Shown one piece after another: positions 28,386 to 46,532 of a stretch of DNA of 64,000 bases; position 1 is the stretch's first letter, and the number at the start of each line of letters is the position of its first letter. Source of the DNA: Phycisphaerae bacterium (lineage in GTDB: Bacteria; Planctomycetota; Phycisphaerae; WQYP01). The notes beneath the pieces are model-generated. The model saw nothing but the letters and a program-made list of their open reading frames with translations, was not told where the DNA came from and made no database searches. Position numbers and translations under genes: made by a program. Location: the NCBI GenBank assembly GCA_035545015.1, contig DASZZD010000013.1, positions 78,134-142,133 on the forward strand. The letters are read 5' to 3'.

Positions 28386-28412
28386 GGCGGGCCGCGTGGC
28401 CGGGCCCCCAGA

Positions 28413-28500
28413 CGACGACGTAAATGGCCACGAAAAGGCACGAAAAACACGAAGGACGACCACGACGGGAGTTGTCCACGAATGCACACGAAGTTGCACG
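28413..28500 (-). repeat. Type-A repeat element, inverted copy of about 88 bp: ACGACGTAAATGGCC terminal 15-mer plus CACGAA hexamer repeats
   Basis: Its reverse complement aligns along its whole length, with a number of mismatches and one short gap, with 46443-46532. Confidence 0.8.
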
Positions 28501-28629
28501 TATGGAGGCGGGGGGACTGGATGGAACGGAAGTGGCTGACGATACACGCTGATGGATGCGGCTGATGGGATTGCGGCGGGAAAATGTTGTCAGCAATCGC
28601 CTCGGGAGAGCATGTGTCGGAATCCTGAG

Positions 28630-28665
28630 CCATGAGTAGCCTCCCCGGAACAGGGGAGGGGCGAT
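28630..28665 (+). terminator. 7-bp hairpin (CCTCCCC / GGGGAGG) followed by GCGATTTTG
   Basis: agcctccccggaacaggggaggggcgatttt. A possible intrinsic terminator or attenuator between the left repeat and the TPR gene. Confidence 0.3.
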
Positions 28666-28791
28666 TTTGACCTGTCCGTCCGGTCCTGCTTTGCGGAAAT
28701 ACTGAAGCAGACGCGCAGACGTTGCCGATAGCCCGGATACCAGGCACATTTTGCGCACCGGACAGCCCCCGAACCATCCGGAGCGCGCCGC

Positions 28792-28807
28792 AGGCAGGAG
28801 GCTTGCG
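28792..28807 (+). promoter_or_regulatory. candidate sigma-54 promoter (-24 GG / -12 TTGC) upstream of the TPR-FlgN-like-HK-RR operon
   Basis: AGGCAGGaggcTTGCG against TGGCACGnnnnTTGCW: correct spacing, 2 mismatches. Chance matches are frequent at this GC content. Confidence 0.3.
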
Positions 28808-28847
28808 GCAGGGGGCCAGGTAGTTCACGACGGCGGAGCCGCACGGA

Positions 28848-31358
28848 ATGACCACCGCAGCCGACACTGACGCACACGCCCCGTTGGAGGCCGGCGCTTC
28901 CGCGCCCGCCGCCCGGCGCGCGCCCGCGGCGGGGGCGAATCCGTGGCGGCGTCTCTGGCAGATACCGCTGCTGCTGGCCGGCCTCACGCTGTTCGCCTAT
29001 GGCGTGCGGACGCTGGCGCGGACGATCAAGCCGGTCCCATTTGAAGCGCACGTCACGGACATCCAGAACATGCTGGCGGCCGGGCGGTACAACGACGCCG
29101 TGGCGCGGATCAACATTCTGGCGGACCATTTTCACGAGCGCTCGCAGCAGGCCACGCTGGAGGTGCTTGCGGGCGACACGCTGTACCTGGCGCAGCAGAA
29201 GCAGGCGGCGCCGGTGCGTTCGAATTTCGAGGGCATCATCCGGCATTATCAGCGTGCGACGACGCTGGGCTTTGCGCCTACGCCGACGTTCAACGAGCGC
29301 TGGGGGGAAGCGTCGCTGGCGCTCGGGGATGCCCCGACGGCCATCCAGAAATTTGAAGCCGCCGCCGCGGTGAATCCGGCGATCCTCCAGGCGCACGTGC
29401 ACGAGCTGGTTGACGCCTATACCGGCGCTGGCAACATGGCCAAGGCCGCCGCGGTCGTCGATCGCCTGCTTGCGCAGCCCGATCTGCCGATCGACGATCG
29501 GGCGTGGGGCCTGTGCGAGAAAATCCGCATGGCGCTTCAGCAGGATGTGTCGGGCGGTGCGCCCTCCGGCGAGCTCACTGCCGCGGTCAATGCTGCCGAG
29601 GCTGCCGTTCCGAAGATCGCTGAGCGCGATCCGGCGGGGCGCGTTCTGGTGTGGATCGGCCGGGCCCGCTACGAACAAGGTCAGTTGGATGCCGCCGCCG
29701 CCGCCCTGACAGACGCCCGCTCGCGCTTCATCGTGCATCATCTTGATGACGGTCGCGCGGAGTTGCTCCTGGCCAAAATCGCCCAGGCGGAGTTTGCCAA
29801 GACGGGCGATGCCGCGCAGCTCAAAACCGCCCAGGATCTCTTCCAGGAAGTTGTCACCCGCCACGCCGGCACGCCGATTTTCGCCGCAGCGCTTCTCGGT
29901 CGGGCCGAAGTCGCCGCCGCGCAACCGGGGAAGGTCACCGTGGACAAGGAGCGTCTCGAAGCCGATTACCGCTTCGCGATCAAAGCGGTCACGCCGGCCG
30001 CGGATGCCGCCCCCTCCGCCACGCTTGATCCGCCGGCGGAATTCATCACGCATGAGAGTGTGCGCAGCAGCCTGATCGCGGCCCACGAGCACGCCTTCCT
30101 CGCCGGCCGCCTCGATGACGCGCTGATGTATCTCTCGCTGGCGCGCGAGCTCGGCGATCCGGAATCCGCCGATGATGCCTTGCGCTGGGCGATCACGCAC
30201 GAACGCCGCGCCGACGAAATGCTGGCCGGAATCCCCGAAGGTCACGAGCGCGCCCCCGCGCTTGCGATGCTCGGGCAGGCTGCCGAGGATTACCTCCGCC
30301 ATTCGCGTCTCACCACGATGCAGGACGATGTCTCCGGGAACAGCCTCTGGAAGGCCGCCGCGCTCTTCGACGCCGCCGGCCAAACCCTGCGTTCCGCCGG
30401 CATCTACGAGGAATTCACGGCCCAGCGCCCCGCCGACCCGCGCGTTCCCGAGGCGCTTCTCGACACCGGCCGTCTTTACCAATCCGTGGGCCAGATCGAC
30501 AAGGCCATCCCGGTCTACCAGCGCAACATCCGCGAAAATCCCCGCACGCCCGCCGCCTACACCTCCGCGGTGAATCTCGCCCGCTGCTATATGACCCTTG
30601 GCCCGCAGGATTTCGACAAGGCCGAGGCGGCGCTGCTGTCGCTCGTGCAGGACAACCGCGACCTGCTGCCGACGGCCAACGAATTCCGCATCAGCATCTT
30701 CACGCTTGGCGAGTTGTATTACCGAAACCAGCGCTGGGCTGACGCGATTCTGCGTCTGGAGGAGGCCCGTACGCGCTATCCCGATGATCCCGCCGTGCCG
30801 CACGCCACCTTCATGCTGGCCGAAAGCTATCGCCACAGCGCCCAGGAAATCGGGGCCGCGCTCAAGAATAACCCCGGCGCCGATGACCGCGCCGCCATGG
30901 AGGCCGCGCGCAGCGATCGCTATGCCCGGGCCTCGGATCTGTTTGGCTCCGTCATCAGCGCCCTCGATTCCGCACCCGAGCAACCGGCTGCGGCGACCAC
31001 AGCGACCACTGGCCCTGCCGCTTCGACTTCCCATCTATCCCCTGTGGATGCCGAATACCTGCGAACCGCCTATCTCGATCGTGCCAGTTGCGCCTACGAA
31101 ACCCAGCGCTATACCGATGCGATTCACCTGTACGACGGGGTGGCTTCGCGCTTCCCCGATGAGCTGATCGCCGTCGACGCCTACATCCAGATCGTCAACA
31201 CCTATCTGGCGCTCCAGCAGCCCGCCGAGGCCGCCGCCGCCGCCGAGCGCGCCCGCTGGGTGCTCAAGCGCATCCCCGACGATGCTTTTCCCAAGACCCC
31301 GATCGCGCTCACGCGCGCGTATTACGAAAACTTTCTCAAGATCGGCAGCCAGCCCTGA
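28848..31358 (+). CDS. TPR-repeat protein with an N-terminal TM segment
   Basis: 836 aa. Hydrophobic segment WQIPLLLAGLTLFAYGV, then many TPR-like helical repeats. Confidence 0.6.
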   Translation: MTTAADTDAHAPLEAGASAPAARRAPAAGANPWRRLWQIPLLLAGLTLFAYGVRTLARTIKPVPFEAHVTDIQNMLAAGRYNDAVARINILADHFHERSQQATLEVLAGDTLYLAQQKQAAPVRSNFEGIIRHYQRATTLGFAPTPTFNERWGEASLALGDAPTAIQKFEAAAAVNPAILQAHVHELVDAYTGAGNMAKAAAVVDRLLAQPDLPIDDRAWGLCEKIRMALQQDVSGGAPSGELTAAVNAAEAAVPKIAERDPAGRVLVWIGRARYEQGQLDAAAAALTDARSRFIVHHLDDGRAELLLAKIAQAEFAKTGDAAQLKTAQDLFQEVVTRHAGTPIFAAALLGRAEVAAAQPGKVTVDKERLEADYRFAIKAVTPAADAAPSATLDPPAEFITHESVRSSLIAAHEHAFLAGRLDDALMYLSLARELGDPESADDALRWAITHERRADEMLAGIPEGHERAPALAMLGQAAEDYLRHSRLTTMQDDVSGNSLWKAAALFDAAGQTLRSAGIYEEFTAQRPADPRVPEALLDTGRLYQSVGQIDKAIPVYQRNIRENPRTPAAYTSAVNLARCYMTLGPQDFDKAEAALLSLVQDNRDLLPTANEFRISIFTLGELYYRNQRWADAILRLEEARTRYPDDPAVPHATFMLAESYRHSAQEIGAALKNNPGADDRAAMEAARSDRYARASDLFGSVISALDSAPEQPAAATTATTGPAASTSHLSPVDAEYLRTAYLDRASCAYETQRYTDAIHLYDGVASRFPDELIAVDAYIQIVNTYLALQQPAEAAAAAERARWVLKRIPDDAFPKTPIALTRAYYENFLKIGSQP

Positions 31359-31378
31359 GTGTTTTTCGCGAGGACGTT

Positions 31379-31858
31379 ATGACTCAATTGTTCCCGCCAC
31401 CAAACAGCCCGTTCGCCGGCCCGCTCGGGCAGACCAGCCTCGCGGCCACGCTGGCCCGCGCCCTCTCCGGCCAGAAGGCCATCTACGCCCAGATCCTCGC
31501 GCTGTGCAAACAGCAATCGCAGTACGTCGCGACCGGCGAAACCGAGCACTTGATGACCATCCTCGCCGCACGCAACCGCCTGATCGAGCAGGTGGGCCCG
31601 CTCGATCGCGAGCTCCAGCCTTACAAGGGACGCTGGCAGCAGGTGCTCGATGGCCTGCCGGCGCGGGAGCGTGAAACCGTGGGCGGTTTACTGAAGGAAG
31701 TGCAGACGCTGTTGGCCCAAATCCTCGCCGCCGATGAGGCCGACAAGGAATCGCTGACGCGCCAGAAGAGTTACATCGGCACGGAAATTTCCCGCACCGT
31801 GAGCGGCGCCACGCTCAATCGCGCTTATGGTATCAACGCCCGGGTGGCCCGCGGATGA
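31379..31858 (+). CDS. FlgN-like flagellar export chaperone (putative)
   Basis: 160-aa helical protein directly upstream of the HK/sigma-54 activator and flgB. The FlgN family call is tentative. Confidence 0.35.
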   Translation: MTQLFPPPNSPFAGPLGQTSLAATLARALSGQKAIYAQILALCKQQSQYVATGETEHLMTILAARNRLIEQVGPLDRELQPYKGRWQQVLDGLPARERETVGGLLKEVQTLLAQILAADEADKESLTRQKSYIGTEISRTVSGATLNRAYGINARVARG

Positions 31859-32745
31859 CCGACACCGTGACAACCTCCACCCTCGACGATGGCCCGCAAA
31901 CCCCCGGCGGCGCTCCCCCTCGCACGCTCGAGGACCTGCACGAAATCCTCAAGATGTACAACGAGGTTACGCAGCGTTTGCAAGTCAGCCATGAGCGCCT
32001 GCAGCAGGAAGTCGTGCGGCTCACCGAGCAGCTCGAACAGAAAAACCGCGAGCTGGAACTGAAAAAACGCCTCGCCGCCCTCGGTGAGATGGCGGCCGGC
32101 ATCGCGCATGAAATCCGCAATCCGCTGGGCGGGATCGGGCTTTACGCCTCCACCCTCGCGGCCGAAGTTGCCGACCGTCCCCTCGCCGCCGAGCTCGTCC
32201 GCAAAATTTCCTCCGGCGTCAAAGGCCTCAACGCGCTCGTCTCCGACATGCTCACTTTCACCCGCGATCTGCACCTCGACGCGCAGCCGCAGGAGCTCGA
32301 ATCCATCGTCCTCGAGGCTTTGGAACTCGCCGCCCCCAGCCTCCTCGCTCAGGACATCACCGCACGCGTTCATGGTTCCGTGAAAGGCAAAACGGTCCGC
32401 GCCGACCGACGCTTGCTGTCTCGCGTGCTGCTCAACCTCGTGCTCAACGGCGCGGAAGCCATCACCGAGGCGAATATCACCGGCGGCCGCATCGAAATCC
32501 GGGCCTGCCGCAACGGCGACAAAAACGAAATCACCGTCGAAGATAACGGCCCCGGCATCCCCCAAGACCTCGTCGAAAAAATCTTTGATCCCTTCTTCAC
32601 CACCAAGCACACCGGCACAGGCCTGGGGCTGGCTATCGTCCACCGCATCATCGAAGCCCACGGCGGCCAAATCACTGCCCATAACCGCAAATCCCCGGAC
32701 CGCGGCGCACGCATCCGCATCGTGCTTCCGCATGTGAACACCTGA
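31855..32745 (+). CDS. cytoplasmic sensor histidine kinase (FlrB/FleS/FlgS-like)
   Basis: HisKA H-box [12 protein letters not shown] and HATPase_c motifs GTGLGLAIV. No TM segments. ATGA overlap with the upstream gene. Confidence 0.8.
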
Positions 32746-32823
32746 ATCCGCAGAGAGAGAATCTCTGTGACAAACTTTTCGCACGACCTTCAAACGAACC
32801 AGGAACTTGAGGAGTAGCTAAGG

Positions 32824-34254
<1,431 letters not shown>

Positions 34255-34366
34255 TCGCGCAGCCTCCCCGGGGGCGCAGCGCTCTTCCTGCGCCCGACGC
34301 GCAACACCTGCGCGTCCTCCCACTGCCTCCTTCAAGATTCCCCGAGGATTCCAACACCGGCCCCCG

Positions 34367-34383
34367 CGGTACACAGCTTGCAA
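34367..34383 (+). promoter_or_regulatory. candidate sigma-54 promoter upstream of flgB
   Basis: cGGTACAcagcTTGCAa against TGGCACGnnnnTTGCW: GG and TTGCA with canonical spacing, 2 mismatches. About 30 nt upstream of the flgB start. Confidence 0.4.
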
Positions 34384-34412
34384 TAGCATCCGCACCCAGC
34401 AAGGATTCGCCT

Positions 34413-34844
34413 GTGATCGATGATCTCATTTCAACCCCCACCACCCGCGTGCTCGAAGGCGCCGTCAACTTCACCGAGCAGCGCCACCAGGTCCTGTTGG
34501 AAAATATCGCCAATCTCGATGTCCCCGGCTACATCCAGAAAGACCTCAACGTCGGCGATTTCCAATCCTCCCTCCGCAACGCCCTCGACCGCGAACGGGC
34601 CTCCGTCGGCACCGACGTCAACCCCGCCTCCACCGAGACCATCGATTTCTCCCAGGGCGCCAGCAATCCCATCGGCATCCCTCAACAGGTGATCGCCAGC
34701 CCCGTGTTCCACGACAAGGGCGCCCGCTCCATCGATTCGCTCATGAGCAACCTCGCCGACAACGCCCTCGCCCACAACACCGCCGTCCAACTCCTGAAGT
34801 ACAGCTACGACAGGATCAGCCGCGCGATTTCCATGAAGGTGTAA
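34413..34844 (+). CDS. flgB: flagellar basal-body rod protein FlgB
   Basis: GTG start. ENIANLDVPGY and a C-terminal rod motif. Confidence 0.85.
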   Translation: MIDDLISTPTTRVLEGAVNFTEQRHQVLLENIANLDVPGYIQKDLNVGDFQSSLRNALDRERASVGTDVNPASTETIDFSQGASNPIGIPQQVIASPVFHDKGARSIDSLMSNLADNALAHNTAVQLLKYSYDRISRAISMKV

Positions 34845-34867
34845 CTCCGGTTTTTTCCTGGATACTT

Positions 34868-34900
34868 TTCATGCTTTTCGTGTTTTTCGTGGCCATTTAA
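34868..34900 (+). repeat. Type-A repeat, partial copy (2x TTCGTG + GGCCATTTAA) between flgB and flgC
   Basis: gcttttcgtgtttttcgtggccatttaagg. Confidence 0.7.
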
Positions 34901-34909
34901 GGTTCTCGC

Positions 34910-35314
34910 ATGTTCGGTTCCTTCGATATCTCCTCCAGTGCCCTGAGCGCCGAGCGCATCCGCCTCGACACCATCGCCTCCAACCTCGCGAATGTCGACA
35001 CCGTCCTGGGACCCAACCATCAGCCCCAGCCTTATCGCCGCCTTTTCGCGACGTTTCAGACCCAGCGCACCCCCGATGGCGGCGTCGGCGTCGGCGTCGC
35101 CTCCATCGAGCAGGACACGCAAACCCCCTTCCGCATGAAGCTCGAGCCCGGCAGTCCCGCCGCGGACGCCAACGGCTGGGTCCGTTATCCCAACGTCGAT
35201 CTTTCCACCGAATACGTCAACGCCCTGGAGACGACCCGGGCGTATGAAGCCAACATTACCGCGATCGAAACCACCAAGTCGATGATCAACTCGGCGCTTC
35301 GCATCCTGGCCTGA
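34910..35314 (+). CDS. flgC: flagellar basal-body rod protein FlgC
   Basis: FDISSSALSAERIRLDTIASNLANVDT...YVNALETTRAYEAN. Confidence 0.9.
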   Translation: MFGSFDISSSALSAERIRLDTIASNLANVDTVLGPNHQPQPYRRLFATFQTQRTPDGGVGVGVASIEQDTQTPFRMKLEPGSPAADANGWVRYPNVDLSTEYVNALETTRAYEANITAIETTKSMINSALRILA

Positions 35315-35365
35315 ACGATCCGTCACCCGCAACCGCCGGCAGCGCCGGCCTGAGAGGACCTTCCC

Positions 35366-35680
35366 GTGGACGCCCTCAACTCCCTCAACAATCTCTCCGT
35401 CGGCGGCGCCAATGTCTCGGCCGGTTCCGCGGCCTCATCCCCTGCCGCCGGCACGCCGAGCACCAGTTTCAAAGACGTGCTGATGAAAAACCTCAGCGAG
35501 GTCAACGATCTTCAGCAGGATGCCGACAAAAAAATAGAAGACTTCGTCACCGGCCGCTCGCAGAACATGGGCGAAATCATCTCCGCCAGCCAGAAAGCGA
35601 CGATGGCCTTCAACATGCTTACGCAAATCCGCAACAAGCTTCAGGACGCCTACGACGAAGTGAAGAACCTGCGCGTCTGA
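35366..35680 (+). CDS. fliE: flagellar hook-basal body protein FliE
   Basis: GTG start with a gagagga RBS. FKDVLMKNLSEVNDLQQDAD...MAFNMLTQIRNKL. Confidence 0.8.
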   Translation: MDALNSLNNLSVGGANVSAGSAASSPAAGTPSTSFKDVLMKNLSEVNDLQQDADKKIEDFVTGRSQNMGEIISASQKATMAFNMLTQIRNKLQDAYDEVKNLRV

Positions 35681-35861
35681 TCCCCCACTCCCCCATCGAG
35701 GGCAAACAGGCAATACCTGCGCGTCCGCCCGCTCTTTCGGCAAGCTTTGCCGCGCTCATCCATTTTCTCCTGTTGAACTTCCCGCCTTTCTACCGATGAC
35801 ATCCATACGACTGCGGAGCGGTCGCACCACGGGACACGTCTTCTCGGTCCTGACCTGAGGC

Positions 35862-37565
35862 ATGGATGCCATGGCGTTTCTGCGCAGAACCCTCGAACAG
35901 CTCAAAACCCAGCTCGCCGGGCTGTCGGTCAGCAACAAGCTGCTCATCGGCCTGTGCCTGCTCATCATGGTCGCGGTCGCGTTCTTCACCGTCGCCAACT
36001 CCTCCAAGCCCGCCATGGTCGTGCTCATCGACCAGCCCATGACCCCCCAGGAAATCAACAAAGTCGAAATGCAACTCACGGGCAAGCACACCTACAAGGT
36101 CGACGGCGACAAAATTCTCGTGCCCGCCGAAGACGCCTACGCCATCCGCGGCGAGCTCTTCGCCGCCCAGGCCCTCCCCTCCGACACCACGATGGCCTTC
36201 GAGGAACTGGTCAAGGCCAACAACCTCTTCACCACCGAGCACAACGCCGCGCGCCAGTGGAACGTCGCCACCCAGGAAACCCTCTCGCGCATGCTCAAGT
36301 ATTTTCCCTACATCGAATCCGGGACGGTGATCGTCGTGCCCGGTGAACGCGCCGGCATTGGCCAGTCGATGGCCCCGTCGACCGCGAGCGTCACCGTCAA
36401 GGTCCGCAACAACGAAGCCCTTTCGAGCCGCCAGGTCGACGCCATCGTCTCGATGGTCGCCGGCTCCGTCTCGGGCCTCAAGCGCCAGAACGTCAACGTC
36501 GTCGATGGCCAGCGTTCGTACCACGTGCAGGACGACGGCGTCGCCATGCCCACGGAACTGCTCGAACTCAAAAAGGCCATCGAAGACACGCTCACGCAGA
36601 AGCTCTACACCATGTTCAGCGAAGTCCCCAACGTCAAAATCGCCGTCAACGCCGTCCCCGACATGCGCTCCCGCACTCAGGACTCCCAAACCTACGATCC
36701 CAAGGGCGTTGTCCACGCGGACATTTCCGAAACGCGCCACACCACCAATACGTCCGACGGCACCGCGCAAAAATCCGAGCCCGGCGTCCGCCCCAACGTC
36801 GGCCTCGTCGCCGATTCCTCCAACGGCAACCACAGCAGCTCTTCCACCAGCAACGACACCTCCACCAGCAGCGAAGCCCGCTTCTCCAAAGTCGACGAGC
36901 ACACGCAGTTCACCCCCGGCGCCGACCTCAAGGAGCTCACCGCCTCCATCTCCCTGCCCCGCTCCTATTTCGTCTCGCTCTATCGCCGCATGACCAAGGA
37001 CCCGAAGGCCGATCCCGAGGACGACAAGCTCAAGCCCGTGATCGACGAGCAGCTCAAAGCCTTCGCCCTTCGCGCCAAGAACGCCATCGGCGCCCAGTCC
37101 GATGACCAGATCCGCGTCGATTGGTTCGATGACACGCTCGCCCCGCCCCCGCCCGATGTCGTCGTCGCAGGCACGGGCCTCTCCGCGGGAACCGTCGGCG
37201 GGCTGGTCTCGCAATACGCCCGGCAGGGAATCCTCGCCGTGCTCGCCCTTGGCGCCCTGGGCATGATGCTGATGATGGTCAAGCGCGCCGTCCCCGCCGC
37301 CGCGGGCGAAGACCTCGATCCGTCCGTCCTTTTCGGCGGCGCGGGCGCCGGGGGCAAAAAGCGCGGCGCTTCCGCGGGCCAGTTCGACACCGACGACGAT
37401 GTCTTCGGCGAAGCCAACTCCGGCGAGGCCGTCCTCACCGGCATCGAACTCGACGACGACACCCTCGCCAGCCGCAAGATGGTCGATGAAGTCTCCACCA
37501 TGATCAAAGAAAACCCGGAAAACGCCGCCGCCCTGGTAAAGCGCTGGATCGCCAAAGGCAAGTAA
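35862..37565 (+). CDS. fliF: flagellar M-ring protein FliF
   Basis: 567 aa. N-terminal TM segment, YscJ/FliF family body and a C-terminal TM region. Confidence 0.9.
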   Translation: MDAMAFLRRTLEQLKTQLAGLSVSNKLLIGLCLLIMVAVAFFTVANSSKPAMVVLIDQPMTPQEINKVEMQLTGKHTYKVDGDKILVPAEDAYAIRGELFAAQALPSDTTMAFEELVKANNLFTTEHNAARQWNVATQETLSRMLKYFPYIESGTVIVVPGERAGIGQSMAPSTASVTVKVRNNEALSSRQVDAIVSMVAGSVSGLKRQNVNVVDGQRSYHVQDDGVAMPTELLELKKAIEDTLTQKLYTMFSEVPNVKIAVNAVPDMRSRTQDSQTYDPKGVVHADISETRHTTNTSDGTAQKSEPGVRPNVGLVADSSNGNHSSSSTSNDTSTSSEARFSKVDEHTQFTPGADLKELTASISLPRSYFVSLYRRMTKDPKADPEDDKLKPVIDEQLKAFALRAKNAIGAQSDDQIRVDWFDDTLAPPPPDVVVAGTGLSAGTVGGLVSQYARQGILAVLALGALGMMLMMVKRAVPAAAGEDLDPSVLFGGAGAGGKKRGASAGQFDTDDDVFGEANSGEAVLTGIELDDDTLASRKMVDEVSTMIKENPENAAALVKRWIAKGK

Positions 37566-37580
37566 AAAACAGCAGCGTTC

Positions 37581-37620
37581 TTTCGTGTCCTTCGTGCCTT
37601 TCGTGGCCAATTTACGTCGT
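37581..37620 (+). repeat. Type-A repeat, partial copy (3x TTCGTGNNN + GGCCAATTTACGTCGT) between fliF and fliG
   Basis: tttcgtgtccttcgtgcctttcgtggccaatttacgtcgt. Confidence 0.8.
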
Positions 37621-37637
37621 AAGAAGCCAGAGTTCGC

Positions 37638-38654: not shown

Positions 38655-38683
38655 TCCCCGCGAGCTTTCACGCTGCGACTTCA

Positions 38684-38715
38684 CGACTTGACGATTTAAC
38701 GACTTGACGATTTGA
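38684..38715 (+). repeat. Type-B tandem repeat, 2x 16 bp (ACGACTTGACGATTTR), between fliG and fliH
   Basis: acgacttgacgatttaacgacttgacgatttg. It overlaps the ORF-caller TTG start at 38712, which argues for the ATG at 38736 as the real fliH start. Confidence 0.8.
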
Positions 38716-38735
38716 CCCCCAACGCCGGACCTCCC

Positions 38736-39434
38736 ATGCCCCTGCTCAAAGCCCACTCCGCCCCGCGCCTCCGCGAGTCCTCCATCGTGATGGACCTTTC
38801 CGATCTGGAGCGCGAAGCCACGCAGATCGTTAAAAGCGCCAAGGCGCAGGCCGACGAAATGCTCGCCGCCGCCCGCGCCGCCGCCCAGCGTGAAGCCGCC
38901 GCCATCCGCGAACAGGCCCGCGCCCAGGGCCACGCCGAAGGACTTGTCAAAGGCCTCGAAGAAGGCCGGAAATCCGGCCACGACGCCGCCGTCGCCGAAA
39001 CCTCCGCCCTCGTCAAGGACCTCACCGCCCGCTGGTCGCAGTCGCTGGAAATCATCCACCAGCACATGCCCGCCCACGCCGCCGACGCCAAGTCCGATCT
39101 CCTCCGCCTGGCGCTTGCCATCGCCGCGCGCGTGACGCATCAGGAAGCGCTCCGCAACAAAAAAGTCGCCGAAGCCGTCGCCGCCGACGCCCTCGCCCTC
39201 GCCGCCACCGCCCGCCGGATCACGCTCCTGGCCAACCCCGCCGAAGCCGATCTCCTCAACGCCTACCTCCCCGAACTGGTCGCCAAACTCCGCACTATCG
39301 ATTCCGTCCAGCTCCTCCCCGACCCCTCCATCACCCCCGGCGGCGTCATCGCCCAATTCGGCGCCGGCGAAATCGACGCGCGCCTGGAAACCCAACTCCA
39401 ACGCATCACCGACGAACTCCTCGCCGCCGAATAG
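38736..39434 (+). CDS. fliH: flagellar assembly protein FliH
   Basis: Position between fliG and fliI. Charged coiled-coil N-terminus (EAAAIREQARAQGHAEG) and a FliH-like C-terminus. The start is uncertain (38712 TTG or 38736 ATG). Confidence 0.7.
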   Translation: MPLLKAHSAPRLRESSIVMDLSDLEREATQIVKSAKAQADEMLAAARAAAQREAAAIREQARAQGHAEGLVKGLEEGRKSGHDAAVAETSALVKDLTARWSQSLEIIHQHMPAHAADAKSDLLRLALAIAARVTHQEALRNKKVAEAVAADALALAATARRITLLANPAEADLLNAYLPELVAKLRTIDSVQLLPDPSITPGGVIAQFGAGEIDARLETQLQRITDELLAAE

Positions 39435-39491
39435 ACATCGTTTAGCCCCGGCCCTTGGGCCGGGCTTCATACGTGAAAAGCCGCAGCCATC

Positions 39492-40880
39492 ATGACCCTA
39501 TTGCAAACCTACATCGACCAGCTCCACACCCTCGAACCCAAATCGGTCCGCGGTCAGGTCGAGTCCGTCCGCGGCCTCACCGTCCGCGTCGCCGACCTCG
39601 CCGCCCCCGTCGACTCCGCCGTCGAAATCACCAGCGAGCGCGGCGAAAAAATCCCCGGACAGGTCGTCGGCTTCGAAAACCAGTTCGCCATGGTCATGCC
39701 CCTCGGACCCCTCCAGGGCATCGCCCGAGGCAACACCGTCCGCACCACCTCCACCTCGCAGCGCATCATCTGCTCCCCGCTCCTCGTCGGCCGCGTCATC
39801 GACGCCCTCGGCCGCCCCATCGATGGCAAAGGCCCCATCAAGCTCCCCGAGCATCGCCCCGTCAACGTGCGCGCCATCGACTGCATGCGCCGCGTCCCGA
39901 TCCACCAGCCCATTTCCACCGGCATCCGCTCCATCGACGGACTCCTCACCTGCGGCCTCGGCCAACGCATGGGCATCTTCGCCGGTCCCGGCGTCGGCAA
40001 GTCCACCCTCATGTCCATGATCTCCAAAAACACCTCCGCCGATATCTCTGTCATCGCCCTGATTGGTGAGCGTGGCCGCGAAGTTCAGGACTTCCTCCAG
40101 CATTCCCTCGGCGAAGAAGGCCTCCGCCGCGCCATCGTCGTCGTCTCCACGGCCGACGATCCGCCCATCCTCCGCGTCCGCGCCGCCCGCGCCGCCTGCA
40201 CCATCGCCGAATATTTCCGCGATGGCGCCGGCGGGGCCGCCGGTGGTAAGGGCCTCAACGTCCTGCTCCTCCTCGATTCCCTCACCCGCATGGCCCAGGC
40301 CCAGCGCCAGATCGGCCTCTCCGTCGGCGAACCCCCCGCCACCAAGGGCTACACCCCCTCCGTCTTCGCGCTGCTTCCCGAAATCCTCGAACGCGCCGGC
40401 AAAACCGACACCGGCTCCATCACCGGCTTCTACACCATCCTCGTCGAAGGCGACGACTTCAACGAACCCATCGCCGACGCCGTCAAAGGCATCACCGACG
40501 GCCACCTCTGGCTCGACCGCCACCTCGCCAACAAAGGCCACTTCCCCGCCGTCGGCGTCCTCCAATCCATCTCCCGCGTTCGCACCGATGTCACCGACAA
40601 AGACCACCAGGCCATGGCCCGCCGCATCAACCAGCTCCTGGCCACCTACGCCGACATCGAAGACCTCGTCAACATCGGCGCGTACACCCCCGGCTCCAAC
40701 CCCGCCAACGATCTCGCCGTGCGCAGCTACGCCCGCATCCTCGATTTCCTCCAGCAAGCCACCGACGCTCCCAGCGGCTTCGACCAGACCCGCGTCCACC
40801 TCACCAATCTCTGCGCCACGATCGAAAAAGACGCCAAACTCCTCGAACAAGGAAAACCCCCCGCGCAACGAAAAACCTAA
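39492..40880 (+). CDS. fliI: flagellum-specific ATPase FliI
   Basis: Walker A GPGVGKST. Homology to the F1/T3SS ATPase family. Confidence 0.95.
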   Translation: MTLLQTYIDQLHTLEPKSVRGQVESVRGLTVRVADLAAPVDSAVEITSERGEKIPGQVVGFENQFAMVMPLGPLQGIARGNTVRTTSTSQRIICSPLLVGRVIDALGRPIDGKGPIKLPEHRPVNVRAIDCMRRVPIHQPISTGIRSIDGLLTCGLGQRMGIFAGPGVGKSTLMSMISKNTSADISVIALIGERGREVQDFLQHSLGEEGLRRAIVVVSTADDPPILRVRAARAACTIAEYFRDGAGGAAGGKGLNVLLLLDSLTRMAQAQRQIGLSVGEPPATKGYTPSVFALLPEILERAGKTDTGSITGFYTILVEGDDFNEPIADAVKGITDGHLWLDRHLANKGHFPAVGVLQSISRVRTDVTDKDHQAMARRINQLLATYADIEDLVNIGAYTPGSNPANDLAVRSYARILDFLQQATDAPSGFDQTRVHLTNLCATIEKDAKLLEQGKPPAQRKT

Positions 40881-40894
40881 CCCCGCTTCCCCTC

Positions 40895-40915
40895 CTGACT
40901 ACTGACTTCTGACTT
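40895..40915 (+). repeat. Type-C tandem heptamer (CTGACTN x3) immediately 5' of the fliJ start; the leader lacks an SD
   Basis: ctgactactgacttctgacttctcccttATG. Confidence 0.8.
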
Positions 40916-40922
40916 CTCCCTT

Positions 40923-41426
40923 ATGGCCCAACCCCGATTCCATTTCCCCCTCGAAGCCCTCCTCGAGCACCGCCGCGCCGCCGAGCGCGACCACATGCGC
41001 AAAGTCGCCCTCGCCCAGCAGGAAGTCCAATCCCTCCTCGCCACCATCCGCACCGCCCAGCAACGCATCGCCGACGAAAACCGCGCCCTCTCCACCACCC
41101 ATCTCACCGGCCGCCTCGATATGGCCGCGATCGCCTTCGGCAAACGCTACGTCGGCAACCTCCACTTCCAGATTGTTCTGACCGCCCAGAAGCTCGCCGC
41201 CGCCGAGCAAAAAGTCGCCGCCGCCCGCGCCCAGCTCCTCCAGGCCGCCCGCGCCCGCAAGGTCATCGAAAAACTGCGCGAAAAGCAGCACGCCCGCTGG
41301 CTCGCCGAACTCGAACGCAAGGACGCCGCCCTCATGGACGAAATCGGCACCCAGCTCGCCATCCGCGAAGCCGCCCGCACCGCAGCCGAATCCCCCACCC
41401 TTCCCCAACCCGCAGGTGACGCATGA
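40923..41426 (+). CDS. fliJ: flagellar export protein FliJ
   Basis: 167-aa coiled-coil protein following fliI, as in the conserved fliH-fliI-fliJ order. Confidence 0.65.
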   Translation: MAQPRFHFPLEALLEHRRAAERDHMRKVALAQQEVQSLLATIRTAQQRIADENRALSTTHLTGRLDMAAIAFGKRYVGNLHFQIVLTAQKLAAAEQKVAAARAQLLQAARARKVIEKLREKQHARWLAELERKDAALMDEIGTQLAIREAARTAAESPTLPQPAGDA

Positions 41427-42148
41427 AAAAAATCGCCTCCTTCCTCAGCCTCCTGGCCATCTTCAATCTTCTCGCCCTCGCCGCCGTCATCATTTATCTC
41501 TCCTCCACCAACCGCCTCGACGGCGCCAAGGCCCATGCCATCGCCGACCTCCTCCGCCACCAGGGCGAGCCTCCCGCCCTGCGCGAAAAGCTCGCCGATA
41601 TTCTCGATCCCAAGCCCGCCGCCACCGCCCCCGCCACGCAATCCGCCGCCACGCAATCCAGTGACGGCGACATCCCCCTCGCCGCCTCCGCCCAGGACCG
41701 CCTCGACTTCGCCCGCCAGGCCATGGAACAGGAACGCCTCCGCCTCGAAACCCAGGCGCAGGACCTGCAGCATCGGCAGGAATTGCTCGAACGCGAGCAG
41801 GCAGCCTTTGCGCAAAAGGTCGACGCCCTCGAAAAGGACAAAAAAGATTTCGACGCCCGCGTCGCCGCGGCCTCCACCAAAACCAAAGACGACAATTTCC
41901 AGAAATCCCTCGCCCTCTACGACCAGATGAAACCCGATCAAATCAAGGAAATCTTCGTGGGAATGCAGCCCGACGTCGTCGCCGACTTCCTCCTGGCCAT
42001 GGACCCTTCCCGCGCCGGAAAAATCATCGGCGAGTTCCAAACCGACCAGGAACAGAAGTACATCGCCTCCGTTCTCGAATTGATCCGCACGCGTGGCACG
42101 GACTCTGCTTCTGCGTCAGCGACCCCCGCAAAACCCAGCGGCTCCTGA
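41423..42148 (+). CDS. YlxF/MotE-like flagellar protein (MgtE_N-like domain)
   Basis: N-terminal TM segment and a coiled-coil, with a C-terminal DQMKPDQIKEIFVGMQPDVVADFLLAMDPSRAGKI MgtE_N-like segment. Occupies the ylxF slot between fliJ and fliK, as in Bacillus. Confidence 0.45.
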   Translation: MKKIASFLSLLAIFNLLALAAVIIYLSSTNRLDGAKAHAIADLLRHQGEPPALREKLADILDPKPAATAPATQSAATQSSDGDIPLAASAQDRLDFARQAMEQERLRLETQAQDLQHRQELLEREQAAFAQKVDALEKDKKDFDARVAAASTKTKDDNFQKSLALYDQMKPDQIKEIFVGMQPDVVADFLLAMDPSRAGKIIGEFQTDQEQKYIASVLELIRTRGTDSASASATPAKPSGS

Positions 42149-42160
42149 CGAGAATGCTTC

Positions 42161-43696
42161 ATGCCCGCAACCTCCATCGACACCTCCCTCGCCTCCTCCG
42201 CCACCCAGCTCCCCGCCAACTCCTCCCTTCCCGATCCCACGCCCGATCCCACCGCCCCTGCCTTCTCCGAAACCCTCCGCGCCGCGCGCGGGCCCAAGCC
42301 CGATTCAACCCGCACGCCCGCCTCCGCCTCCGACGCCCCCAAACCCGCTCCCGCCAAACCCAGGCACAAATCCAAAGCCGACGACGATCAGAAATCCTCC
42401 ACCGCCGACACCGATTCCACCGACACCCCCGACGCCGCGCACCCCACTGACCAGCCTGCCCCATCAACCACCGCCACGGATGATGACGACTCCACCGGCA
42501 GCGCCACGCCCGTCAAATCCCAGAAGCCCGAAAAACCCGACCCCTCCGCCGACACCCCCCCCGACCTCGCCGCCCTGCTGCTCGCCTCCGCGGCGCCGCA
42601 ACCTGTTGCGCAACTCCCCACCAAAAAACTCCCCGCCGCAACCGCCGAAAAAAAAGCTCCCTCGGTTCCCGCGAGCGCCACCGTCACCACCACCGCCACG
42701 CAGCTCCCCACGCCCTCCCATGCCGCCAAAATCATCCCCGCCAAGCCCTCCGCAAAATCACCGACCCCGGCCCAAACGTCCACGCCCGATGCCCCCCCCG
42801 CGCACGAGACCCCCGTCTCCTCCACCAAATCCGTCACCCCGCAACCGCCGGCCACTCCCGCGCCCGCCGTCGTCAAGGACCAAATCCCCCAGCCTCAGCC
42901 CGATCCTCTCACCGCGGAAAAACCCAAATCCAAATCCCCTCTCACCAAAGACGCCGCCACGAGCGCGACTGCCGCCGCGCCGTCAGCCGCTTCGGATGCC
43001 GCCGCTCCCCCCACAGCCTCCGTCGCCACCCTCGCCGCCGTCGCCGGCGCGCCAGCTTCCTCCCCAGCCCCCGACAACAAACCCGCCGATCCCGCCCCGC
43101 AGAAATCCTCCGCCGCCGACACCGCGCCTCTCCCGCTCCCCGCGCCAGCACAAAGCGCAACCTCCGCCGCCCACAGCGCAAGCTCCGCCGCGCAAGCGCA
43201 CGATTCGCCCCGCGCCGCCGACGACTCCACCTTCGATCAGATCGTCCTGGGCCTGCGCTCCAAGCTCGACCCCTCCAACGGAAAGGCCGAAATCAGCCTC
43301 CAACCGCCATCTCTGGGCAAACTCACCGTCTCCATCTCCCTCAACAACGGCGCGCTCACTGCCCACTTCAGGGCGGCTTCCGATTCGGTACGAGACTTGC
43401 TCAGCAGCAACATGGATAAGTTGAAAAATGTCCTTGAGTCCCAGGGTGTCGCCGTCGATCGCCTTGCCGTCAATGCCGCTCCCGACACCCCCAACTCCGG
43501 CGGATCCGCCACCGGCGGCAATAACTCCGCCAACTCCGGCTCCGCCAGTCACGACGGCCGCAGCGCGGGTGAGTACTCCCGCGAAGGCTCCGGCAGCTCA
43601 GGCCGCGACGCCCAACGAAGACCCGATCCCGGCTCCTTCGCACGCCTCTGGAACGGCGCGCGAACGACCCCCGATCCCCTCGACCTCGTCGCCTGA
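42161..43696 (+). CDS. fliK: flagellar hook-length control protein FliK
   Basis: Pro/Ala/Thr-rich N-terminal region. C-terminal Flg_hook domain ISLQPPSLGKLTVSISLNNGALTAHFRAASDSVRDLL. Confidence 0.7.
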   Translation: MPATSIDTSLASSATQLPANSSLPDPTPDPTAPAFSETLRAARGPKPDSTRTPASASDAPKPAPAKPRHKSKADDDQKSSTADTDSTDTPDAAHPTDQPAPSTTATDDDDSTGSATPVKSQKPEKPDPSADTPPDLAALLLASAAPQPVAQLPTKKLPAATAEKKAPSVPASATVTTTATQLPTPSHAAKIIPAKPSAKSPTPAQTSTPDAPPAHETPVSSTKSVTPQPPATPAPAVVKDQIPQPQPDPLTAEKPKSKSPLTKDAATSATAAAPSAASDAAAPPTASVATLAAVAGAPASSPAPDNKPADPAPQKSSAADTAPLPLPAPAQSATSAAHSASSAAQAHDSPRAADDSTFDQIVLGLRSKLDPSNGKAEISLQPPSLGKLTVSISLNNGALTAHFRAASDSVRDLLSSNMDKLKNVLESQGVAVDRLAVNAAPDTPNSGGSATGGNNSANSGSASHDGRSAGEYSREGSGSSGRDAQRRPDPGSFARLWNGARTTPDPLDLVA

Positions 43697-43722
43697 TTTC
43701 CCTCTCGCTGGAAAGGATTCCC

Positions 43723-44235
43723 ATGGCTGTTTCCGGTATCGCCACCACCCCCACCGCCGCCCCCGCCACCACGTCCAGCGCCACCGCCATGTCCTCCACC
43801 GATTTCATGAAGGTCATGCTTCAGCAGCTCGAACATCAGGACCCCCTCAACCCCACCGATTCCAACCAGCTTCTCACCCAGCTCTCCGAAATCAGCCAGC
43901 TCCAGTCCAACACCGACATGCAGAACAACATCGCCTCGCTCACCCTTCAGCAATCCATGGGCGCCGCCGGCAATCTCATCGGCAAGCAGGTCCAGGGCAT
44001 CACCCCCTCCGGCCAGGCCACCACCGGCACCGTCACCAAGGTCCAGATCACCAACCAGCAGGTCTCCCTCCAGCTCGACAACGGCGCTTCGCTCCCCATG
44101 CAGAACGTCACCATCATCGCCCAGCCCACGCCCACGGCGACCAGCGCCAACGGCGCCACCACTACCTCCTCGCAATCCGCGGCACAACAGCTTCTCCAGT
44201 TGCTTCAAGGCATGGCAGGCGGCTCAAGCAGTTGA
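43723..44235 (+). CDS. flgD: flagellar hook capping protein FlgD
   Basis: DFMKVMLQQLEHQDPLNPTDSNQLLTQLSEISQLQ is the FlgD N-domain. Confidence 0.8.
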   Translation: MAVSGIATTPTAAPATTSSATAMSSTDFMKVMLQQLEHQDPLNPTDSNQLLTQLSEISQLQSNTDMQNNIASLTLQQSMGAAGNLIGKQVQGITPSGQATTGTVTKVQITNQQVSLQLDNGASLPMQNVTIIAQPTPTATSANGATTTSSQSAAQQLLQLLQGMAGGSSS

Positions 44236-44404
44236 CCCGCTGATCCACGTATTTTCACGGGCCGCAGGATGCAGCCCGCCAATCTCGTGCGCGGCGTGAT
44301 CCATCGGGGCGGCGGAGCCCGCCCCATCACGTCGTGTTTAACATCTCCGTGGCACGGCGCGCCCCGGCGCGCCTTCCCGCCACTTCCTGATACTCGGAGG
44401 CCTC

Positions 44405-46144
44405 ATGGGCATCACTTCCTCCCTCGTCACGGGTCTCTCCGGTCTCTCCAGTTCCCAGTCTGAAATCGACGTCATCGGCAACAACATCGCCAACGTCAAC
44501 ACCGTCGGCTTCAAATCCTCGCGCCTCGATTTCAAAACCCAGTTCCTCGAAAACTTCTCCTACGGCACCGCACCCTCCGCCACCGCCGGCGGCACCAACC
44601 CCCTCCAGATCGGCCTGGGCACCCAGGCCGGCGCCATCACCAAGGACTTCGGCGACGGCTCCCTCCAGGTCACCGGCGTCCCCACCAACATGGCCATCCA
44701 GGGCAATGGCTTCTTCGTCCTCAAAGACGGCACCCAGCAGGTCTACACTCGCGACGGCTCCTTCCAGCTCAATGGCCTCAATCAGCTCGTCTCCGGCACC
44801 GGTCAGCTCGTCCAGGGCTACGGCGTCGACGCCAACTACAACATCACCTCCGGCGTCCTCACCAACCTCACCATCCCCGTCGGCTCCCTCACCGTCGCCC
44901 AGGCTACCTCTAAAACCACCTTCGCCGGCAATCTCAACTCCGGCGGCGATATCCCCACCTCCGTCACCGATTACACCCTCGGCCAGCCCCTTTATCTCAC
45001 CGATGGCGCAGGCGGCGTGAACCCCACCAACCCGCCCACCGGCGCCACCCTCCTTACCGATGTCACCGACGCCACCGGCGCCGCCCAATTCCAGGTCGGC
45101 GACGTCCTCACGGTCAAAGGTTCCAAGGGCTCCAAAGACTCCGTCAGCATCGCCCCCGAAACCCTCACCGTCACCGGCACCACCACCCTCGCCGATCTCC
45201 AGTCCTTCTTCACCGGCGCCCTGGGCATCAACACCAGCGCCGGCGCCAACGGCTCCATCGCCACCGTCCCCGGCGTCACCATCCCCGCCACCGGCAACAC
45301 CGCCACCTTCACCATCGATGGCAACCCCGGCCTCGAAAATGACATCGTCCTCGACAACAACTCCTTCACCGTCACCCGCGCAGGTACTGTCCTCACCCCC
45401 TACACCTTCACCAAAAATTCCTCCGCCGATGGCGAATCCACCACCACCTCCATGACCGCCTACGACTCCCTCGGCACCCCCATCACCATCAATGTCACCG
45501 CGGTCCTTGAATCCAAATCCAGCTCCGGTTCCACCTGGCGCTACTTCGCCACCTCTCCCGCCAACACCAACGTCACCCCCGCCACCTCCACCGCCGTCGG
45601 CACTGGCACGCTCTCCTTCGATACCTCCGGCCAGCAAGTCTCTTCCACCAATCCCACCATCACCATCAATCGCGCAGGCACCGGCGCACAGCCCAGCCTC
45701 TCCGTCAACGCCGATTTCTCCCAGATCACCGCCCTCTCCGGCACCACCAGCACCCTCGCTTCCACCTTCCAGGACGGCTCACCCCCGGGCACCCTCACCA
45801 CCTTCGCCATCGGCACCGACGGCATCATCACCGGCTCCTTCTCCAACGGCCTCTCCCGCACCGTCGGCCAGGTCGCGCTCGCCACCTTTCGCAACGACGA
45901 AGGCCTCATCGACGACGGCTCCAACACCTACATCGAAGGCCCCAACTCCGGAAACGCCATCATCTCCGCCCCCCAGCAGCTCTCCTCCGGCCGCGTCGTC
46001 GCAGGCTCCCTTGAACTTTCCAACGTCGACCTCTCCTCCGAATTCGTCCAGCTCATCGCCGCCTCCACCGCCTTCTCCGCCAGCTCCAAAGTCATCACCG
46101 AAAGCAACCAACTCCTCCAGGACCTCCTCTCCTCTGTCCGCTAA
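44405..46144 (+). CDS. flgE: flagellar hook protein FlgE
   Basis: N-terminal IGNNIANVNTVGFK and C-terminal LELSNVDLSSEFVQLIAASTAF rod/hook motifs. ggagg RBS. Confidence 0.9.
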   Translation: MGITSSLVTGLSGLSSSQSEIDVIGNNIANVNTVGFKSSRLDFKTQFLENFSYGTAPSATAGGTNPLQIGLGTQAGAITKDFGDGSLQVTGVPTNMAIQGNGFFVLKDGTQQVYTRDGSFQLNGLNQLVSGTGQLVQGYGVDANYNITSGVLTNLTIPVGSLTVAQATSKTTFAGNLNSGGDIPTSVTDYTLGQPLYLTDGAGGVNPTNPPTGATLLTDVTDATGAAQFQVGDVLTVKGSKGSKDSVSIAPETLTVTGTTTLADLQSFFTGALGINTSAGANGSIATVPGVTIPATGNTATFTIDGNPGLENDIVLDNNSFTVTRAGTVLTPYTFTKNSSADGESTTTSMTAYDSLGTPITINVTAVLESKSSSGSTWRYFATSPANTNVTPATSTAVGTGTLSFDTSGQQVSSTNPTITINRAGTGAQPSLSVNADFSQITALSGTTSTLASTFQDGSPPGTLTTFAIGTDGIITGSFSNGLSRTVGQVALATFRNDEGLIDDGSNTYIEGPNSGNAIISAPQQLSSGRVVAGSLELSNVDLSSEFVQLIAASTAFSASSKVITESNQLLQDLLSSVR

Positions 46145-46151
46145 AAATCCG

Positions 46152-46186
46152 GACTACTGACTCCTGACTTCTGACTACTGACTACT
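46152..46186 (+). repeat. Type-C tandem heptamer (GACTNCT x5) immediately 5' of the flbD start
   Basis: gactactgactcctgacttctgactactgactactcccccATG. Confidence 0.8.
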
Positions 46187-46191
46187 CCCCC

Positions 46192-46389
46192 ATGATTCCC
46201 GTCACCAAACTCTCCAACCAATCCATCGTCATCAACGCCGAGCTGATCAAGTTCGTCGAGTCGACGCCCGACACCCTGATCACCCTGACCACCGGCGATC
46301 GCGTCCTGGTCAAGGAATCCGCCGACGAAATCATCCGCCGCGTCATCGACTACGGCCGCTCCCTCCGCCGCCTCCTCCCACCATCCTGA
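46192..46389 (+). CDS. flbD: flagellar protein FlbD
   Basis: MIPVTKLSNQSIVINAELIKFVESTPDTLITLTTGDRVLVKESADEII closely parallels Bacillus FlbD (SwrD): LNSDLIEFIEETPDTVITL..VKES.EEVI. Confidence 0.75.
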   Translation: MIPVTKLSNQSIVINAELIKFVESTPDTLITLTTGDRVLVKESADEIIRRVIDYGRSLRRLLPPS

Positions 46390-46442
46390 GGCGCCCGCCC
46401 TTCCCAACACCCCCCCCTCAATAAACAATTCTACAAATCAGA

Positions 46443-46532
46443 ATTCGTGAAAATTCGTGGACAATTCCCTTCGTCGGCGGTGGGGGGGGAACTTTCGTGC
46501 CTTTCGTGTCCTTCGTGGCCATTTACGTCGTA
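46443..46532 (+). repeat. Type-A repeat element, full forward copy of about 90 bp (5-6 TTCGTG hexamers + GGCCATTTACGTCGT terminus)
   Basis: attcgtgaaaattcgtggacaattcccttcgtcggcggtggggggggaactttcgtgcctttcgtgtccttcgtggccatttacgtcgt. Inverted partner at 28413-28500. Confidence 0.8.

Follow-up and report, generated by a model that had tools for sequence, protein, structure and literature searches.

Hexamer-triplet repeats around a Phycisphaerae flagellar operon as probable arms of a widespread miniature element family linked to GxxExxY genes

Introduction

Why should two repeats of about 90 bp, lying 18 kb apart in opposite orientation, enclose a block of flagellar genes so exactly? The question is raised by a 64,000-nucleotide (nt) stretch of a Phycisphaerae bacterium genome (assembly GCA_035545015.1, contig DASZZD010000013.1; the whole stretch is hereafter the window), in which two long repeats built of TTCGTG hexamers, here called copies A and B, stand on either side of the block while two shorter copies occupy spacers within it. 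A first-pass annotation of the window considered a binding platform for a flagellar regulator, an RNA-level processing or stability element, and a MITE-like element (miniature inverted-repeat transposable element) that mobilised or delimits the block as a cassette. Our analysis suggests that the four copies are probably arms, lacking an open reading frame (ORF), of a widespread family of miniature selfish elements that is apparently undescribed. More tentatively, we propose that the TTCGTG triplets serve as recognition arms for a class of miniature mobile element not yet described, driven by a 128-aa PD-(D/E)XK nuclease (GxxExxY, TIGR04256/PF13366) and spread through operon spacers of more than ten bacterial phyla and through their phages; the flagellar copies would be stray arms of it.

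Results

Four copies of one repeat in the window

The 15-mer GGCCATTTACGTCGT occurs exactly at two sites in the 64-kb window, 28415-28429 on the minus strand and 46517-46531 on the plus strand, and thus forms the outermost part of two long copies in opposite orientation, as the first-pass annotation had described; a copy with two mismatches lies at 37606-37620. Allowing at most one mismatch, TTCGTGNNNTTCGTG has 8 matches in the window against 0.32 expected from shuffled sequence, and 7 of the 8 fall inside four copies that share one build, a TTCGTG x3 array with a 9-10 bp period followed by a GGCCA(A)TTTA(CGTCGT) tail. Each of the four has TTCGTGGCC at its last hexamer, that is, a G directly after it (TTCGTGG). 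Copies A and B can be aligned over about 85-90 bp and consist of two same-direction modules each, with tails that resemble one another: module 1 is two to three TTCGTG units plus GGACAAYTCCC, and module 2 is three TTCGTG units plus GGCCATTTACGTCGT. The copies and their parts are as follows.

28413-28502, minus strand: copy A, adjoining the stop codon of the upstream glycosyltransferase gene and 348 bp ahead of the TPR gene start
28477-28502, minus strand: copy A module 1, TACGTG/TTCGTG/TTCGTG, then GGACAACTCCC at 28467-28477
28429-28453, minus strand: copy A module 2, TTCGTG x3 with spacings of 9 and 10, tail GGCCATTTACGTCGT at 28415-28429
28503-28640, no strand: rest of the window-specific segment, with GCTGAYG x3 at a 13-bp period (28535-28567)
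34865-34900, plus strand: flgB-flgC spacer copy, TTCATG/TTCGTG/TTCGTG at a 9-bp period plus GGCCATTTA
37579-37620, plus strand: fliF-fliG spacer copy, TTCGTG x3 at 37582-37605 plus GGCCAATTTACGTCGT
46443-46532, plus strand: copy B, between the flbD stop codon (46389) and the stop codon of a convergent 1528-aa TPR gene (46535)
46444-46459, plus strand: copy B module 1, TTCGTG x2, then GGACAATTCCC at 46459-46469 and a G8 run at 46482-46489
46494-46517, plus strand: copy B module 2, TTCGTG x3, tail GGCCATTTACGTCGT at 46517-46531

The two shorter same-orientation copies reported earlier are thus real, and the gene content from A to B agrees with the earlier account: only the TPR, FlgN-like, histidine kinase and sigma-54 response regulator genes and flgB to flbD lie between them. 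Copy A and the flgB-flgC and fliF-fliG copies sit in co-directional spacers and copy B in a convergent one; copy A is antisense to both of its flanking genes, and the two internal copies stop short of the flgC and fliG ATG by 9 and 17 nt, respectively. The degenerate copy claimed ahead of flgE (44319-44335) contains no hexamer unit and differs from the 15-mer at four or more positions; we dismissed it as a chance resemblance and did not count it. A C8 run (46410-46417) and the G8 run at 46482-46489 flank module 1 of copy B and pair with each other in the predicted fold; the window holds 12 runs of at least eight G.

A widespread family of hexamer-triplet arrays

A scan for TTCGTG x3, with one genome per species, returned at least 119 loci in more than ten phyla, among them Verrucomicrobiota, Planctomycetota, Acidobacteriota, Chloroflexota, Bacteroidota, Desulfobacterota, Heliobacteria and Gammaproteobacteria. 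Viral contigs carry arrays as well, and some of these are true phage contigs, with a terminase gene (L164) or baseplate genes (L205), in which nearly every spacer holds an array. When metagenomes were scanned for two hexamers followed by the tail, 12 loci were obtained, none of them flagellar as judged by reading the neighbouring translations, and in one metagenome the module lies within a repeat of about 165 bp that recurs at no fewer than four sites. Arrays of this kind are not confined to flagellar loci.

The family statistics that follow hold among the matches listed in the genome and viral-contig scans, and control hexamers of the same composition were compared with them by the kind of match, not by abundance. 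Of 150 matches, 133 have a G after the third hexamer, a position outside the search pattern (91% when arrays are counted by position); the spacers between units differ in 88% of arrays, and a fourth unit is almost never present. The spacing is 9 or 10 bp, 10-then-9 being far commoner than 9-then-10, and the consensus reads tTTCGTGt.tTTCGTGt.aTTCGTG|GTTAAA. An inverted partner accompanies 39% of arrays, the other 61% being single, and the geometry of the pairs is CCACGAA x3, 9-150 bp, TTCGTG x3 GG in 45 of 51 genome pairs and 25 of 27 viral pairs; paired arms have identical hexamers, whereas their spacers are only 63% complementary. The control hexamers matched in-frame 9-bp coding repeats only, with no inverted partners. 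Co-directional spacers hold most of the arrays and divergent ones few, and single arrays in co-directional spacers are sense or antisense to transcription in 15 and 13 cases in genomes and in 11 and 25 cases in viral contigs. Relative to replication, the two orientations number 46 and 55 in genomes, without bias, and 32 and 70 in viral contigs, a weak bias.

All four window copies have three TTCGTG-type hexamers at a 9-10 bp period, and by architecture they belong to this family; we count them as family arms because they have the hexamer triplet, end it with a G and lie in spacers of the usual kind. Their 9-bp spacing and long tail would place them in a lineage-specific branch of it.

Searches for an existing description were negative. 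No Rfam family matched the window or 19 array loci at the gathering threshold, and in E-value mode three stretches (two from the window, one from L032) gave only generic hairpin (miRNA) matches; literature searches with words of the array motif yielded only primers and eukaryotic motifs, and we found no paper describing the elements. BLAST of a doublet against cultured phages and plasmids produced chance-level matches only, and the ORF-less doublets contain no gene remnants. Operators of the MraZ type, which are direct GTG-containing repeats with a 10-bp period, offer an architectural analogy only; as a candidate they were rejected, there being no mraZ gene in about 250 loci.

Two groups of loci deserve separate mention. 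The dispersed repeat of about 165 bp (L131, 6080-8200 and 8528-10168; also L121, L124, L125) is bounded by GTTTACCG...CGGTAAAC and has the TTCGTG array and tail internally; in L131 two such repeats in inverted orientation enclose two ORFs, and a RayT-like fragment (YQGRFKS...RYVERNALRANLV) lies 430 bp away. A tblastn search of 132 loci with the RayT-like fragment found a match only in L131 itself. In L095 (2050-3480), doublets have CACTAAT in the left arm and ATTCGTG in the right, so that the mismatch falls at the same position in every unit on either strand, a pattern that recognition of the sequence would fit better than a need for a perfect hairpin.

Gene-bearing units link the arms to GxxExxY genes

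At three array loci (L059, L095 and L102) a small ORF 11-38 bp from the array encodes a GxxExxY protein (PF13366 PDDEXK_3, TIGR04256), and all-against-all clustering of neighbouring ORFs returned, besides this small GxxExxY cluster, only common housekeeping superfamilies. We then sampled independently of the arrays, picking by protein homology, on long contigs, homologues 61-66% identical to one array-ascertained protein. Arms and gene are linked: arms flank the gene on both sides in four of four sampled units for which DNA was available (L502, L503, L505 and L506), and also in L102. In the four sampled units the left side reads AACCACGAAT-n3-CACGAAT-n3-CACGAAT and leads into an ORF of 126-132 aa, and the right side follows after 0-26 nt (9-13 nt in three of the four) as ATTCGTG-n3-ATTCGTG-n3-ATTCGTGGTT, giving a total of 430-473 bp from CC to GG. 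In L503 the variant word CACAGAT/ATCTGTG co-varies in both arms. The ATG and the first four codons of the gene (MDTN) lie inside the left arm, and 103 of the 120 closest homologues start with M[DN][TA][ND], that is, ATG RAC RCG AAT.

In ordinary operons (a microcompartment operon, opp, ptsI, thrS) the units stand between cistrons, with flanking spacers of 2-13 bp in three of the four (the upstream spacer of L503 is about 320 bp), and the right arm of full-length units ends 4-13 nt before the ATG of the next gene. The protein of about 128 aa is predicted to adopt a PD-(D/E)XK nuclease fold: its AlphaFold (AF2) model has a predicted local distance difference test score of 91, with residues 1-7 disordered; the nearest solved folds, all weak matches (E ~1e-3, template-modelling score ~0.5), are Cas4, lambda exonuclease and the Holliday-junction resolvase Hjc; and no substitution is seen at E35, P73, D74, D84 or K86, so that the PD...DxK motif is intact. 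Sequence comparison found no relative of solved structure. A 2012 survey of the superfamily listed PF13366 as a family of unknown function, present in prokaryotes and viruses and transferred multiple times (PMC3424549).

Comparison with related flagellar loci

FliG homologues bear the names Phycisphaerae and Tepidisphaeraceae, which marks the organism as a planctomycete. The closest relative, L120 (GCA_035548175.1), has a FliG 100% identical to that of the window and 85-94% nucleotide identity over the region; eight further loci came from six relatives, with FliG 95-96% identical in L493, L497 and L499-L501 and 89-91% identical in L494-L496. The glycosyltransferase/TPR junction spans 254 bp in the window (28387-28640) but 42 bp in L120, where BLASTN finds no copy A, and the flgB-flgC spacer, 65 bp in the window, is 30 bp in L120 and holds no array. 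L120 retains an identical fliF-fliG array and also copy B, the latter with three upstream units rather than two and G11 rather than G8. L493-L497 and L499-L501 lack all four copies at the corresponding spacers, and within the reach of each contig they keep the gene order from flgB to flbD. Copies have thus been gained or lost among relatives that share the genes. The fliI-fliJ spacer of L493, L497 and L499 carries arrays of the window build, with drifting hexamers (TTCGTG, TCCGTG, ATCTGTG, ATCCGTG, ATCCGCG) and related tails, for example GGCCGTTCCCCCGTCGTC.

These comparisons bear directly on the idea that the repeats delimit or mobilised a cassette, which we no longer consider tenable: the gene order survives in relatives that lack the copies, and so does the left junction (L120, L493, L494, L497 and L499, all without copy A). 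The first-pass annotation had itself named absence of the flanking copies from close relatives with the same cluster as the finding that would speak against such a role, and this is what we see, copy A being absent from L120 and both A and B from L493-L496. It had also noted that the cluster stops abruptly at flbD, exactly at the right repeat. Because the cluster also ends at flbD in L493-L496, the relatives whose contigs reach this gene, and all of them lack copy B, we regard the end point as a trait of the lineage; the genes that follow vary (RecJ in L494, a hypothetical gene in L495, a glycosyltransferase in L496). We give almost no credence to a composite element with A and B as functional terminal inverted repeats that moved, or can move, the whole 18-kb block, even though the two stand in the usual inverted geometry of the family with GG outermost: the usual distance between arms is 9-150 bp, or about 380 bp with a gene between them, and both ends of the block are conserved where the copies are missing. 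The repeats of a composite transposon would travel with the block while its junctions differ, and here the junctions persist without the repeats. The bracketing by A and B would instead be a coincidence of two separate recent gains. What survives of the MITE-like explanation is a dispersed family of intergenic repeats with gene-bearing relatives.

Discussion

The observations are consistent with a full-length element of 430-473 bp in which one GxxExxY gene, for a protein of about 128 aa, would lie between two inverted arms, each made of three (A/T)TTCGTG hexamers spaced 9-10 bp, about one helical turn, with GG at the outer edge. Such units, and the far more numerous ORF-less doublets and single arms, would enter short co-directional or convergent spacers and leave the operon intact. 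Four spacers within or next to the flagellar operon would recently have acquired copies, which may represent solo or tandemly duplicated terminal repeats or MITE-like derivatives. Judging from the architecture, an oligomer of the nuclease encoded by the element may bind the hexamer triplets, and this nuclease would cut and mobilise full-length and ORF-less copies in trans, and single arms would be products of decay.

If this is true, the GxxExxY family, a large protein family of unknown function, acquires a role that can be tested, that of a nuclease whose substrate is its own hexamer-triplet arms, and becomes linked to an intergenic motif, abundant and so far without a name, of little-studied phyla (PVC, Acidobacteriota, Chloroflexota, Bacteroidota, Desulfobacterota) as well as of their phages. 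For the window it means that the flagellar block is very probably not a mobile cassette and the repeats very probably not flagellar control sites. The features by which arrays are recognised can be used by annotators; the arrays may explain the short metagenome contigs around these genes, and units that lie a few bases from neighbouring stop and start codons may affect operon expression.

Several observations weigh against this interpretation. None of the four window copies has an inverted partner arm nearby, and all lie within 18 kb, with none in the other 46 kb; we infer that this clustering arises most simply because the operon supplies most of the short co-directional spacers, and local spread of copies may be a source of it as well. 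Among the loci found through their arrays only 3 of 119 carry the gene, and phmmer found no GxxExxY gene in the 64-kb window or in the fetched Phycisphaerae loci. The four sampled genes belong to one subfamily, and a search of viral contigs for GxxExxY genes returned only two distant homologues (L508 and L509, 31-32% identity, on AT-rich viral contigs), both without arrays. Gene-bearing units have 10-bp spacing and GGTT ends, whereas the window arrays have 9-bp spacing and the long, lineage-specific tail GGCCAATTTACGTCG. The family doublets show no target-site duplication, and we observed neither a transposition event nor an empty site with exact borders.

Alternative explanations

That the phased hexamers form a regulatory platform, bound by the FlrC-like sigma-54 activator, by sigma-28 or by another flagellar regulator, has in its favour the position of all four copies, inside or next to the flagellar block, and the adjacent sigma-54 activator gene. 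We now find it very improbable: relatives that have these genes lack the copies, non-flagellar loci carry the tail (12 of them) and the array as well, and triple hexamers stand near housekeeping genes across phyla. An upstream activator site of the sigma-54 system would be conserved in relatives and lie upstream of a GG-N10-GC promoter, and none comes after the arrays; the sigma-54-like site (34368-34382) and the repeated 12-mer are located away from them. An RNA-level element, in which the arrays would be unstructured transcript spacers that set translation initiation of the next cistron, or paired arms would form stems cut by RNase III, as the paired stems of rRNA intervening sequences are, is unlikely on our assessment. 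It would account for the closeness of the internal array ends to the flgC and fliG start codons (9 and 17 nt), for the right arms 4-13 nt from the next ATG in full-length units and for the avoidance of divergent, promoter-only spacers, and it could accommodate the TIGR02436 '23S_rRNA_IVP' gene of L499, which also has flanking inverted arrays. Yet the folding energies equal those of shuffled sequences (z from -0.15 to 0.30), the copies contain no terminator-like site (the scan for terminators stayed at background level) and match no Rfam family, either orientation to transcription occurs, copy A is antisense to both neighbours, and the spacers of paired arms are only 63% complementary though the hexamers are identical, so that the processing or stability role suggested earlier loses its basis.

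Two further explanations dispense with both mobility and the nuclease, and we judge neither likely. Arrays born by slippage, arising and changing in place in weakly constrained spacers and being neither mobile nor functional, would have ready parallels in the hypervariable 7-8 bp repeats nearby (CTGACTN three times here against ten in L120; CGACTTGA four to five times against six), in the two upstream units of copy B against three in L120 and in the hexamer drift of the orthologous arrays of L493, L497 and L499. Slippage would, however, leave unexplained a unit number that is nearly always three, a distinct terminal G beside unlike spacers, a compound element of 85-90 bp that recurs 18 kb apart, a 15-nt tail at 12 unrelated loci, and arms tied to a gene cassette whose start codon lies inside an arm. 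That the arrays bind a host factor with no relation to GxxExxY proteins, for example a nucleoid, roadblock or termination protein, and that the nuclease genes merely insert in or near them, seems similarly doubtful. Conservation of the hexamer and terminal G across phyla and in phage contigs (L164, L205), where nearly every spacer can carry an array, speaks for such a factor, as does the excess of gene-less over gene-bearing arrays, about 40 to 1 in at least 119 loci. Against it, only GxxExxY recurs as a protein family near arrays, with no MraZ or RayT gene nearby; the conserved MDTN N-terminus indicates that arm and gene evolve as one unit, and in L503 the left and right arms of a single unit vary together, both having the variant word.

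Relation to known systems

REP elements are stem-loop units of 20-40 bp with a GTAG or CGTC tag, found in unidirectional and convergent spacers, as inverted dimers and as singletons that are remnants (PMC3733652). The arrays have a similar distribution, and they resemble the REP/REPIN-RAYT system (REPtrons) as short, non-coding, high-copy repeats without target duplication that are associated with one small linked gene flanked by repeats (PMC3733652). They differ in consisting of three direct hexamers without a hairpin (fold z ~0; the tail contains CGTC, but not beside a stem) and in being linked to a PD-(D/E)XK GxxExxY gene rather than to a RAYT gene for an HUH (Y1) tyrosine transposase. With bacterial MITEs derived from IS elements they share small size, lack of an ORF, inverted terminal repeats common to a gene-bearing relative, intergenic location and variability among strains. 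The ends in common with a gene-bearing element come from L102, L502, L503, L505 and L506, none of them from this genome. The window copies have no partner arm, and the family doublets have inverted arms but no target-site duplication. The repeats, moreover, are three phased hexamers, and the gene form is about 450 bp with a 128-aa nuclease-fold protein rather than a DDE transposase.

Free-standing homing endonucleases of the PD-(D/E)XK type are likewise small selfish nuclease genes that sit between operon genes and leave the operon undisturbed, and I-Bth0305I and Hjc-like folds are among the weak structural neighbours of the GxxExxY protein; homing genes are not known to have bounding inverted repeat arms or to leave ORF-less repeat derivatives. 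Inverted arrays of short units also flank another small multi-copy gene, inserted between fliH and fliI in L499 (11763-12314; also L500 and L501): it encodes a 138-aa '23S_rRNA_IVP' four-helix-bundle protein (TIGR02436/PF05635), and its arrays read ATTATTC x2 ... GAATAAT x3 plus one CACGAAT unit. This single example differs in fold and in having its arms opposite relative to the gene. GxxExxY genes are presumably also present in rRNA intervening sequences. STRR sequences are cyanobacterial tandem 7-nt repeats in intergenic DNA. The CTGACTN and TTTCGTC arrays of the window resemble them as tandem 7-nt intergenic units, whereas TTCGTG arrays have variable spacers, a fixed number of three units, a defined end and a link to a gene cassette.

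Other repeats and sequence features

The 12-mer ACCTGCGCGTCC stands upstream of flgB and of fliF (34306-34317, 35715-35726), and the GG-N10-GC site GGTACACAGCTTGCA, which resembles a sigma-54 promoter, lies ahead of flgB (34368-34382); as candidate activator and promoter sites, both rank above the TTCGTG arrays. In the glycosyltransferase-TPR spacer, GCCGATA (28724-28730) resembles the consensus of the sigma-28 -10 box; unlike the adjoining copy A, it is conserved with its surroundings in L120, L493, L494, L497 and L499.

Other spacers of the window hold short tandem repeats that sit directly 5' of start codons, and two of these spacers are without a Shine-Dalgarno-like sequence.

1595-1626, plus strand (TTTCGTC on the minus strand), listed within 1577-1626: GAAAGAC x4.6
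3641-3666: AATGGTA x3.7
38676-38716, fliG-fliH spacer: CGACTTGA x4-5 (x6 in L120)
40895-40917, fliI-fliJ spacer: CTGACTT/CTGACTN x3 (x10 in L120)
46152-46186, flgE-flbD spacer: CTGACTN x5

The first of these is the array near 1571-1640 that had been taken as related to the flagellar copies; the array is real, but it consists of a different word repeated every 7 bp. Near the start of the window, GGTGCGCAG occurs three times in one spacer (485-560), and a two-unit array, AAATTCGC-AAAAAATTCGG, lies on the minus strand beside a G run (700-730) and may be a decayed relative of the TTCGTG arrays. Among the related loci, L120 has an inverted CACAGAG / CTCTGTG array in fliH-fliI (11805-11924), and L496 has TGAGTT-type repeats ahead of flgC, fliG and fliE (spacers 7118-7163, 9958-10001 and 7552-7713).

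Over positions 1-58000 of the window, GC skew at third codon positions tracks the DNA strand and not gene orientation: read on the plus strand, genes at 8-27 kb have values of +0.2 to +0.5 and those at 31-56 kb values of -0.3 to -0.8, whichever strand encodes them, and the skew fades after about 58 kb. The sign changes at about 27300-31800, at the glycosyltransferase/TPR junction that holds copy A, a plus-to-minus switch such as a replication terminus or a rearrangement breakpoint would give.

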